In this document: in pieces, positions 35,331 through 35,579 of the stretch
How the letters are laid out: every line of letters begins with the position of its first letter
How positions within the stretch are numbered: position 1 is the stretch's first letter
Virus record (IMG/VR): IMGVR_UViG_2974588491_000001
Coordinates: 250,380-314,379 of that record
DNA from: a virus
Lineage: Duplodnaviria > Heunggongvirae > Uroviricota > Caudoviricetes
Strand: one strand, 5' to 3'
DNA length: 64,000 bases
Translations under genes and position numbers: made by a program
The notes under the pieces: generated by a model
What the model was told of the DNA's origin: nothing
Seen by the model: only the letters and a program-made list of their open reading frames with translations
The model's database searches: none

Positions 35331-35579
35331 CCGTTGTTAGGATGTAGGCTTAGAAGCAGCCACATTTAAAGAGTGTCGAGGACGATCCGTAATTGGGAAA
35401 CATATCACAAGTACCAAACGTATAAGTTCAGGGGAAGAAAAGACCGGATACAGTTGTATTAATATGGTATACACGGGCGGCGTATACTTAATGACATGAA
35501 TCGTAGGTGATATTACGTGAAGCGTTAGATGTTAATACAGACCCTTAGAGACTTTGGCGTAACAGCACACTATCAACGG
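35331..35579 (+). ncRNA. 23S rRNA GTPase-centre (H43-H44) mimic with ~175-nt insertion
   Basis: AGGATGTAGGCTTAGAAGCAGCCACATTTAAAGAGT ... GCGTAACAGCACACT closed by CCGTTG/CAACGG. Confidence 0.8.

Follow-up and report, generated by a model that had tools for sequence, protein, structure and literature searches.

An intergenic RNA gene of ~250 nt, at 35331-35579 on the plus strand of the 64,000-nt stretch of phage DNA analysed here (the window), carries a copy of the uL11-binding domain of 23S rRNA that is opened by a structured insert of 182 nt. The RNA belongs to a family of at least 119 distinct members in which the tertiary contacts of the ribosomal domain are kept or covary. We propose, with a probability of roughly 0.45, that it would act in trans, as a mimic of the GTPase-associated centre (GAC) that captures host uL11.

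A phage RNA gene rebuilds H43 and H44 of 23S rRNA

The source genome is a complete 378-kb virus record with terminal repeats, from a GAP32/Rak2-like jumbo phage with kinship to Cronobacter phage GAP32 and other Mimasvirus/Eneladusvirus jumbo phages. Within it the RNA gene is single-copy, and it fills the space between one ORF that ends at 35320 and another that starts at 35624. The initial annotation had described this locus as a free-standing copy of H43/H44 with a large insertion, and that description was borne out. A 33-nt pattern for 23S 1055-1088, with three positions left open, matched the window once, at 35340-35372, with zero mismatches (expected matches 0.00, from 100 shuffles). The 5' half is ~92-94% identical over 36-39 nt to the 23S rRNA genes in 5426 of 5426 complete E. 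coli genomes, and the 3' half, GCGUAACAGCACAC (35557-35570), is identical to E. coli 23S 1091-1104 at 12 of 14 positions. Together, the ends of the RNA rebuild H43/H44 (E. coli 1053-1106) on a closing stem of 9 bp (Table 1). The window copy lacks U1078 and has A1061, and its H44 loop reads GUAACA, compared with GUAAUA in E. coli.

No other rRNA was found in the window. Rfam 15 returned tRNAs only, both for the whole window at the gathering score and for 35200-35700 at E <= 10, so the element is not a fragment of an rRNA operon. In single-sequence thermodynamic folding, the RNA was predicted to be no more stable than its shuffled counterparts (z = -0.42).

The CCGTTG/CAACGG stem proposed from the sequence is real: 35331-35336 pair with 35574-35579, and the stem is extended by 35338-35340 with 35570-35572. 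Of the nine pairs, eight are formed in each of the 14 aligned relatives, and six of these eight show three to four pair types. The insert proved to be 182 nt long (35375-35556) rather than the ~175 nt first given, and its GUC/GAC closure stood; among relatives this helix, Pa, covaries through GC/UA/AU and UA/GC/AU/CG. The phage copy is broken exactly at U1090|G1091, because the 23S rRNA of a Firmicute (L012) runs AAAGAGU|GCGUAAUAGCUCAC without interruption. This L012 sequence is from Paenibacillus phage Pd_22F (MZ092003.1), which includes a genuine, unannotated stretch of 23S rRNA of at least 750 nt at ~82.5-85.5 kb; this may be assembled host DNA or a true capture.

Table 1. Features of the phage RNA in window coordinates; base names such as A1067 follow E. 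coli 23S numbering.
Feature	Position	Strand	Remarks
P1 closing stem, 5' strand, replacing H42	35331-35340	+	Pairs with 35570-35579
Equivalents of U1053, A1054 and G1055	35338-35340	+	Within the 5' strand of P1
H43 copy (A1057-U1081), U1078 missing	35342-35365	+	Exact match to the 23S pattern
1067 loop, UUAGAAGCA	35350-35358	+	A1067 is 35352
U1060 (35345) and A1061 (35346)	35345-35346	+	Within the H43 copy
Junction loop U1082-A1086 (UUAAA), three-way-junction U-turn mini-hairpin	35366-35370	+	1082:1086 covary; A1084/A1085 invariant
GAGU (G1087, A1088, G1089, U1090), 5' strand of lower H44	35371-35374	+	A1088 partners U1060
Structured insert, subfamily A, 182 nt	35375-35556	+	Helices Pa-Pf and a further hairpin
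Pa, insert-closing helix GUC/GAC	35375-35377/35550-35552	+	Compensatory changes; GAC directly before UUUG
Pb helix	35380-35383/35426-35429	+	Compensatory changes
Pc hairpin	35388-35420	+	
Pd helix	35430-35434/35542-35546	+	Invariant in relatives
Pe long helix	35456-35465/35529-35538	+	Mostly kept, with changes
Pf hairpin	35467-35472/35482-35487	+	Mostly kept, with changes
Further insert hairpin	about 35492-35527	+	
UUUG linker between Pa and G1091	35553-35556	+	Family hallmark (unfixed-linker scan, 5'-anchored scan)
Upper H44 hairpin with 1095 loop (GC-GUAACA-GC), and 3' strand of lower H44 (A1101, C1102)	35557-35568	+	A1095 is 35561; identity to E. coli 1091-1104
A1103 and P1 closing stem, 3' strand	35569-35579	+	Pairs with 35331-35340
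U-rich tail CUUUUUAA, likely 3' end or termination tract	35580-35587	+	Kept after the stem in close relatives

The RNA belongs to an essentially viral family

A scan of IMG/VR with a pattern for the 3' junction gave at least 119 loci, and further scans added more; with duplicates removed, at least 119 distinct members of this GAC-mimic family were collected. Homologues lie in unannotated intergenic DNA of GAP32, Serratia phage BF and seven Erwinia phages, and also in Yersinia phages fHe-Yen9-03/04, Xanthomonas phages XbC2, XaC1 and XacN1, Ralstonia phage RSP15, Acinetobacter phage ME3 and Aeromonas phage 4_4572. The family layout runs from the closing stem through H43 and GAGU to a helix-closed insert, and then through UUUG and GYGUAAYARCACAC back to the closing stem; all of these elements are present in the window. 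The split motif, for which the initial annotation had suggested a search, recurs in phage genomes, and the insert sits at 1090/1091 in every member collected (n = 119).

Insert lengths among the 119 members collected span 18-530 nt, with examples of ~50-70 nt, and the inserts form 85 clusters with no detectable similarity between clusters. No uninterrupted mimic was found in viral contigs; the two matches to such a pattern were both unrelated hairpins. When the linker was not fixed in the scan, UUU stood directly before GGCGUAACAGCACAC, giving the linker UUUG, in 67 of 88 distinct viral occurrences, and a 5'-anchored scan recovered the same linker.

In bacterial and archaeal genomes (185,579 species) the pattern matched 35 times. 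Some 15 of these matches are genuine family members, each of them on a MAG contig or scaffold that bears a tRNA array, and the remainder are chance matches without the 5' half; with so few real members among so many species genomes, the family is essentially viral. A reading as contamination is not supported, since the element is kept in many independently sequenced phages. Rfam searches of twelve other family loci returned only tRNA, tmRNA and one twister ribozyme. We could not find a description of such an RNA in the searchable full-text literature, and the phage family is apparently undescribed both there and in Rfam 15.

Tertiary contacts of the ribosomal domain covary in the family

The bases of H43/H44 that make tertiary contacts, whose conservation among phage homologues had been put forward as a test of the initial annotation, are either invariant or covary. 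Core statistics were taken from 90 members with canonical spacing. U1060, A1077, A1084, A1085, G1087 and A1088 are invariant (U1060, A1077 and A1088 in 90/90), where some positions of the 3' half and GAGU were partly fixed by the search patterns and U1060, A1077 and 1082-1086 were free.

The 1072/1092/1099 triple is CCG in 57 members, UUA in 23 and UUG in 10, with zero C/U mixes at 1072 and 1092 (n = 90), and the shift of 1092:1099 from C-G to U-A goes with the change of C1072 to U. Counted per unrelated insert cluster, 1072/1092 is CC in 59 and UU in 25, with 5 exceptions, and both states occur within the window phage's own clade. Covariation is likewise seen at 1082:1086 (U:A 58, C:G 15, A:U 12) and at 1058:1080 (U:A 45, A:U 24, G:C 18). 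In the ribosome, the contacts of the domain comprise the C1072/C1092 pair with the G1099 hydrogen bond, G1071/G1091, and the 1082-1086 mini-hairpin, a loop that is closed by U1082-A1086 and by C:G in Haloarcula (PMC2952862). The covarying contacts of the family match those listed there for the ribosome.

At the foot of the domain, the G1055-C1104 pair is present in 90/90 members, and 1054:1105 is G-C in 54 and A-U in 36, without mismatches. Pairing across the family reaches 82% in the closing stem, where shuffled controls average 45% (maximum 49.5%) and slid controls give 33-46%; for the insert-closing helix the corresponding figures are 79%, 47% (maximum 53%) and 44-47%. The sequence of the closing stem is free (1046-1053 and 1106-1113 vary). 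Since the tertiary contacts covary while the closing-stem sequence is free, the family is selected to fold as the uL11-binding domain, without keeping H42. C1102 could instead take the linker G as its partner, displacing G1087; given this alternative, and an insert that lies in the 5' strand of H44 near the G1091/C1092 triples, the exact fold is not proven. About 20 of the 119 members (L159, L161, L017, L091, L102, L068 and L109 among them) are opened a second time in the 3' strand of H43, where a hairpin of 15-100 nt follows A1077, and the domain therefore tolerates two branch points.

Some inserts carry a copy of the sarcin-ricin loop

The core of the subfamily-A insert is found in GAP32-like phages, in RSP15, XacN1, XaC1 and ME3, and in a clade of 440-nt RNAs from a single metagenome, as well as in Serratia phage BF, Yersinia phage fHe-Yen9-04 and Xanthomonas phage XbC2. 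Local alignment of the inserts from the window, RSP15, XacN1 and ME3 to E. coli 23S rRNA yielded nothing beyond short, inconsistent matches; the subfamily-A insert is therefore not a further rRNA piece. When all inserts were scanned by k-mers, the sarcin-ricin loop was the only recurrent rRNA find: a copy, AGUACGAGAGGA, sits on a 7-bp stem in the 440-nt clade and in three other members. Some subfamily-A relatives thereby carry the uL11 domain and the sarcin-ricin loop on one RNA. The window member is a subfamily-A copy without this loop, and none was found in the rest of the 378-kb genome.

A second insert type, with 14 members (among them L011 from Aeromonas phage 4_4572, L021, L070 and L094), has a conserved terminal module, CACCCCG-NAAN-NGGUAAGG, that lies 15 nt before UUUG and is preceded by AAGU(A/G). 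This module may contain a loop-E/bulged-G-like motif.

Most family members lie near phage tRNA genes

A tRNA gene lies within 3 kb of 83 of the 119 members, on the same strand in 82 of these 83 and at a median gap of 23 nt; the neighbouring tRNA may be of any isotype and on either side. The window is rich in same-strand tRNAs, and the one nearest to the RNA (37966) is 2.4 kb away, compared with the family median of 23 nt; the window copy seems to lie outside a tRNA array. All-against-all clustering of 1990 flanking ORFs found no protein neighbour conserved across lineages, only synteny within clades.

Five over-long tRNA-like genes of 110-125 nt lie in the window (26169-26290, 39993-40104, 45344-45458, 47045-47169 and 52282-52401); several have a common internal motif, GAUUCUUG ... 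GAAUCUUACAGCAACCAUAC, and three of the five are called tRNA by Rfam, while ARAGORN calls them only with introns allowed. In Ralstonia phage RSP15 (L002), an unannotated tRNA-like gene of ~235 nt (~1810-2045) directly follows the GAC-mimic RNA and has an acceptor stem and T arm with a very large internal insertion. Another contig with a family member (L088) bears a type-P5 twister ribozyme (12687-12763) and a tmRNA gene (13276-13663) ~0.5 kb apart.

The RSP15 homologue has a sigma-70 promoter upstream that matches at 12/12 positions (TTGACA-17-TATAAT), and the XacN1 homologue has a GC-rich hairpin and a U run downstream. In the window, a promoter and terminator scan of 34500-36200 returned nothing above chance, and a simple scan called no canonical terminator at 35580-35587. 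With no promoter that stands out, the window RNA probably arises by processing of a longer transcript.

Contigs that cover the element occur in four RNA libraries from three studies, in close relatives. One such contig (35149-35587) has a depth of 52, compared with 8 for the next gene, and another (35402-35578) a depth of 162, compared with 10, all of these being assembly-level figures to which DNA carry-over may contribute; a third spans about 35341-35580. The insert is contiguous in all of the contigs, with zero joints across it, which goes against the removal of the insert that had been considered. The contigs stop at 35578, 35580 and 35587. Because the figures are assembly-level and DNA carry-over is possible, we take them only as a hint that the RNA is stable, unspliced and ends at the foot of the closing stem.

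A possible trans-acting mimic that captures uL11

A free rRNA domain cannot enter the ribosome, so it must act by being bound. That the RNA adopts the uL11-domain fold and acts as a mimic in trans seems to us probable; that its binding partners include uL11 is close to, and slightly short of, an even bet. uL11 is the one known ligand that needs only this ~58-nt domain. For this reason, and because the U1060-A1088 pair, which is contacted by Gly130-Thr131 in the C-terminal domain of uL11 (PMC2175356), is invariant in the family, uL11 is the favoured partner. No uL11 is encoded in the phage genome, and the partner would therefore come from the host. A match to the C-terminal domain of L12 in the terminal repeat was not significant (E 0.019).

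Once freed from its transcript, the RNA would present the GTPase-associated centre off the ribosome, and the presented fold would capture a protein that recognises this centre, with host uL11 ranked first. Such capture would leave host ribosomes with less uL11, and this shortage would in turn weaken uL11-dependent processes such as the activation of RelA. Alternatively, the RNA and uL11 may form an RNP that traps factors. The variable insert may provide a second, lineage-specific arm, which in some relatives would be the sarcin-ricin loop copy; these copies may point to partners beyond uL11. A point against a uL11 sponge is that uL11 is very abundant, so that the RNA would need to be highly expressed.

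Titration of L10, which had been suggested alongside that of uL11, is not supported. uL11 binds H43, but L10 needs H42, its main site, with a conserved core (PMC1635324). In the phage RNA, a generic Watson-Crick stem with no fixed sequence stands where H42 would be, and the core that L10 needs is thus absent.

Alternative explanations

It is unlikely that the RNA instead baits or tightly inhibits an enzyme directed against the GTPase-associated centre, such as an ADP-ribosyltransferase, nuclease or methyltransferase deployed by a host defence or a competitor, and that it spares host ribosomes for the phage cycle in the way that phage tRNAs replace or shield targeted host tRNAs. The phage tRNA arrays in which the family sits are commonly linked to escape from RNA-targeting defences, the sarcin-ricin loop that some relatives add is a classic toxin target, and the hypervariable inserts (85 clusters) fit an arms race. 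A toxin for exactly this site also exists: Tre23 ADP-ribosylates H44 at 1095-1098 (PMC8661411). However, a substrate decoy is a weak answer to an enzyme with turnover, the window copy has no sarcin-ricin loop, and no gene for defence or anti-defence is kept next to the RNA across lineages. Moreover, we know of no anti-phage system aimed at H43/H44.

Improbable, too, is binding of the RNA, with or without uL11, to a translational GTPase or a factor of the RelA type (EF-G, RF3, HflX, BipA or RelA), by which host translation or the stringent response would be tuned. Isolated thiostrepton-domain and sarcin-ricin oligonucleotides reportedly bind EF-G in vitro (Munishkin and Wool, 1997), and relatives with the same insert core bear both elements on one RNA. 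The window RNA, however, has no sarcin-ricin loop, and the bases that contact factors are the least conserved in the core: position 1067 is A in 68% of members and G in 28%, and 1068-1070 vary. That A1067 is kept in only 68% of members argues against selection for contact with thiostrepton or factors, and the relaxed 1067 loop would likewise speak against their recognition. Factors also bind naked RNA fragments weakly.

We see only a slim chance that the rRNA fold has no ribosomal partner and is a stable, nuclease-resistant scaffold or a processing signal, for the insert or for transcripts of the tRNA operon; in the scaffold version, the variable insert would be the real effector. Consistent with this, the insert is obligatory, no uninterrupted version having been found in viral contigs, the subfamily-A insert is itself conserved across very distant phages, and members lie 13-23 nt from tRNAs. 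Yet a scaffold has no need to keep the rRNA loop sequences and all tertiary contacts across 85 unrelated inserts, and many simpler stable folds exist.

A mobile-intron relic, in which rRNA exon fragments were captured together with a group I-type intron at 23S position 1090, is very improbable. The U|...G| borders had suggested a group I intron: a U stands directly before the break, G is the last base of the insert, and a perfect H44 would result from joining the two 'exons'. The intron was rejected, as Rfam gave no match to an intron family even at E <= 10, the inserts shrink to 18 nt and fall into 85 unrelated clusters, and the RNA-library contigs carry the insert with no spliced joint. Covariation in the closing stem and in the tertiary contacts, moreover, means that selection acts on the whole RNA.

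Finally, the RNA is very doubtful as a cis-acting leader or terminator for adjacent genes, including a PTH2-like gene with an in-frame TAG. It ends 44 nt before the ATG at 35624, with a U-run after it, and the downstream product may be translation-related: the sole Pfam match among ten neighbouring ORFs was a weak one to peptidyl-tRNA hydrolase 2 (PTH2; E 0.0022, below the cut-off). Against this, the same RNA precedes four different genes in the closest relatives, most members lie between tRNAs, some homologues have a promoter or terminator of their own, no r-protein gene is nearby and no Rfam leader family matches. The proposal that the RNA regulates the amber-containing genes downstream is largely refuted by these varying neighbours. 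An r-protein leader of the L10/L11 type was rejected as well, since none of the genes downstream encodes an r-protein and these genes change from relative to relative.

The downstream genes have features of their own. The ORF at 35624-35962 starts ATG GCA CAA TAG and continues in frame into the PTH2-like protein, with no alternative in-frame start upstream of the conserved part, and the ORF at 35959-36525 also needs TAG readthrough. A tRNA with anticodon CUA (39616-39688; an amber suppressor, labelled Pyl by ARAGORN) lies 4 kb downstream of these TAG ORFs.

Comparison with known systems

The phage RNA has much in common with the GTPase-associated centre of 23S rRNA (H42-H44, E. coli 1051-1108, with the 58-nt uL11/thiostrepton domain): the sequences and loops of H43/H44, the 1082-1086 loop, the U1060-A1088 pair, and the contacts of 1071/1072 with 1091/1092 and 1099/1100, covariation included. 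It differs from that centre in lying outside any rRNA, in having a stem of free sequence instead of H42, in its obligatory 18-530-nt insert with UUUG at 1090/1091, in the replacement of U1101 by A1101 and the frequent G at 1067, and in being encoded in phage tRNA arrays.

The leaders of r-protein mRNAs (e.g. the L10 leader, RF00557) also mimic the rRNA site of an r-protein. They act in cis, from the 5' UTR of an r-protein operon, and their likeness to rRNA is loose, whereas the phage RNA is a separate gene of near-identical sequence with no r-protein gene nearby and no match to an Rfam leader. Bacterial Y RNAs such as YrlA carry a tRNA-like module on a stem and are bound by Ro60/Rsr (PMC4201824). 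They resemble the phage RNA in joining a closing stem to a module that imitates a translation RNA, and they too occur in phages; the phage RNA, however, copies rRNA rather than tRNA, and its stem has no conserved protein-binding motif. A Y RNA was rejected here, as a Ro60/TROVE gene (PF05731) is absent from the complete 378-kb genome and the stem sequence is variable.

Phage tRNA arrays and tmRNA-like genes occupy the same niche and strand as the GAC-mimic RNA and likewise supply translation-related RNAs from the phage. The RNA probably shares transcripts and processing with the tRNA arrays. In contrast to tRNAs, which are substitutes, a free rRNA domain has to bind something. The 'ribosome-in-pieces' oligonucleotides, thiostrepton-domain and sarcin-ricin-domain RNAs that reportedly bind EF-G in vitro (Munishkin and Wool, 1997), present the same isolated rRNA elements, and relatives of the phage RNA combine both; those are laboratory constructs, whereas this is a natural, conserved gene, whose window copy holds the L11 domain only.

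Implications

If the RNA binds uL11 or another reader of the GTPase-associated centre, it would apparently be without precedent as a natural mimic of a functional rRNA centre that works in trans, and phage-host interactions would gain a new class, one that operates on translation. An unannotated gene conserved in jumbo phages of interest for biocontrol and phage therapy (GAP32, the Erwinia, Serratia, Yersinia and Xanthomonas phages, and Acinetobacter ME3) would thereby be accounted for. Manipulation of the stringent response by phages, or evasion of ribosome toxins, through RNA decoys would become testable. For structural biology, the family would offer more than 100 natural variants of the 58-nt domain, whose branch point looks engineered.

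More tentatively, many unrelated phages may use a portable imitation of the factor site (the uL11 domain and sometimes the sarcin-ricin loop) as a decoy against responses directed at the ribosome, a generalisation that we regard as possible and somewhat doubtful. The targets of such a decoy would be the uL11/RelA trigger of the stringent response, or defence enzymes aimed at the GTPase centre. On this reading, rRNA mimicry would be a general phage counter-measure, parallel to phage tRNAs.
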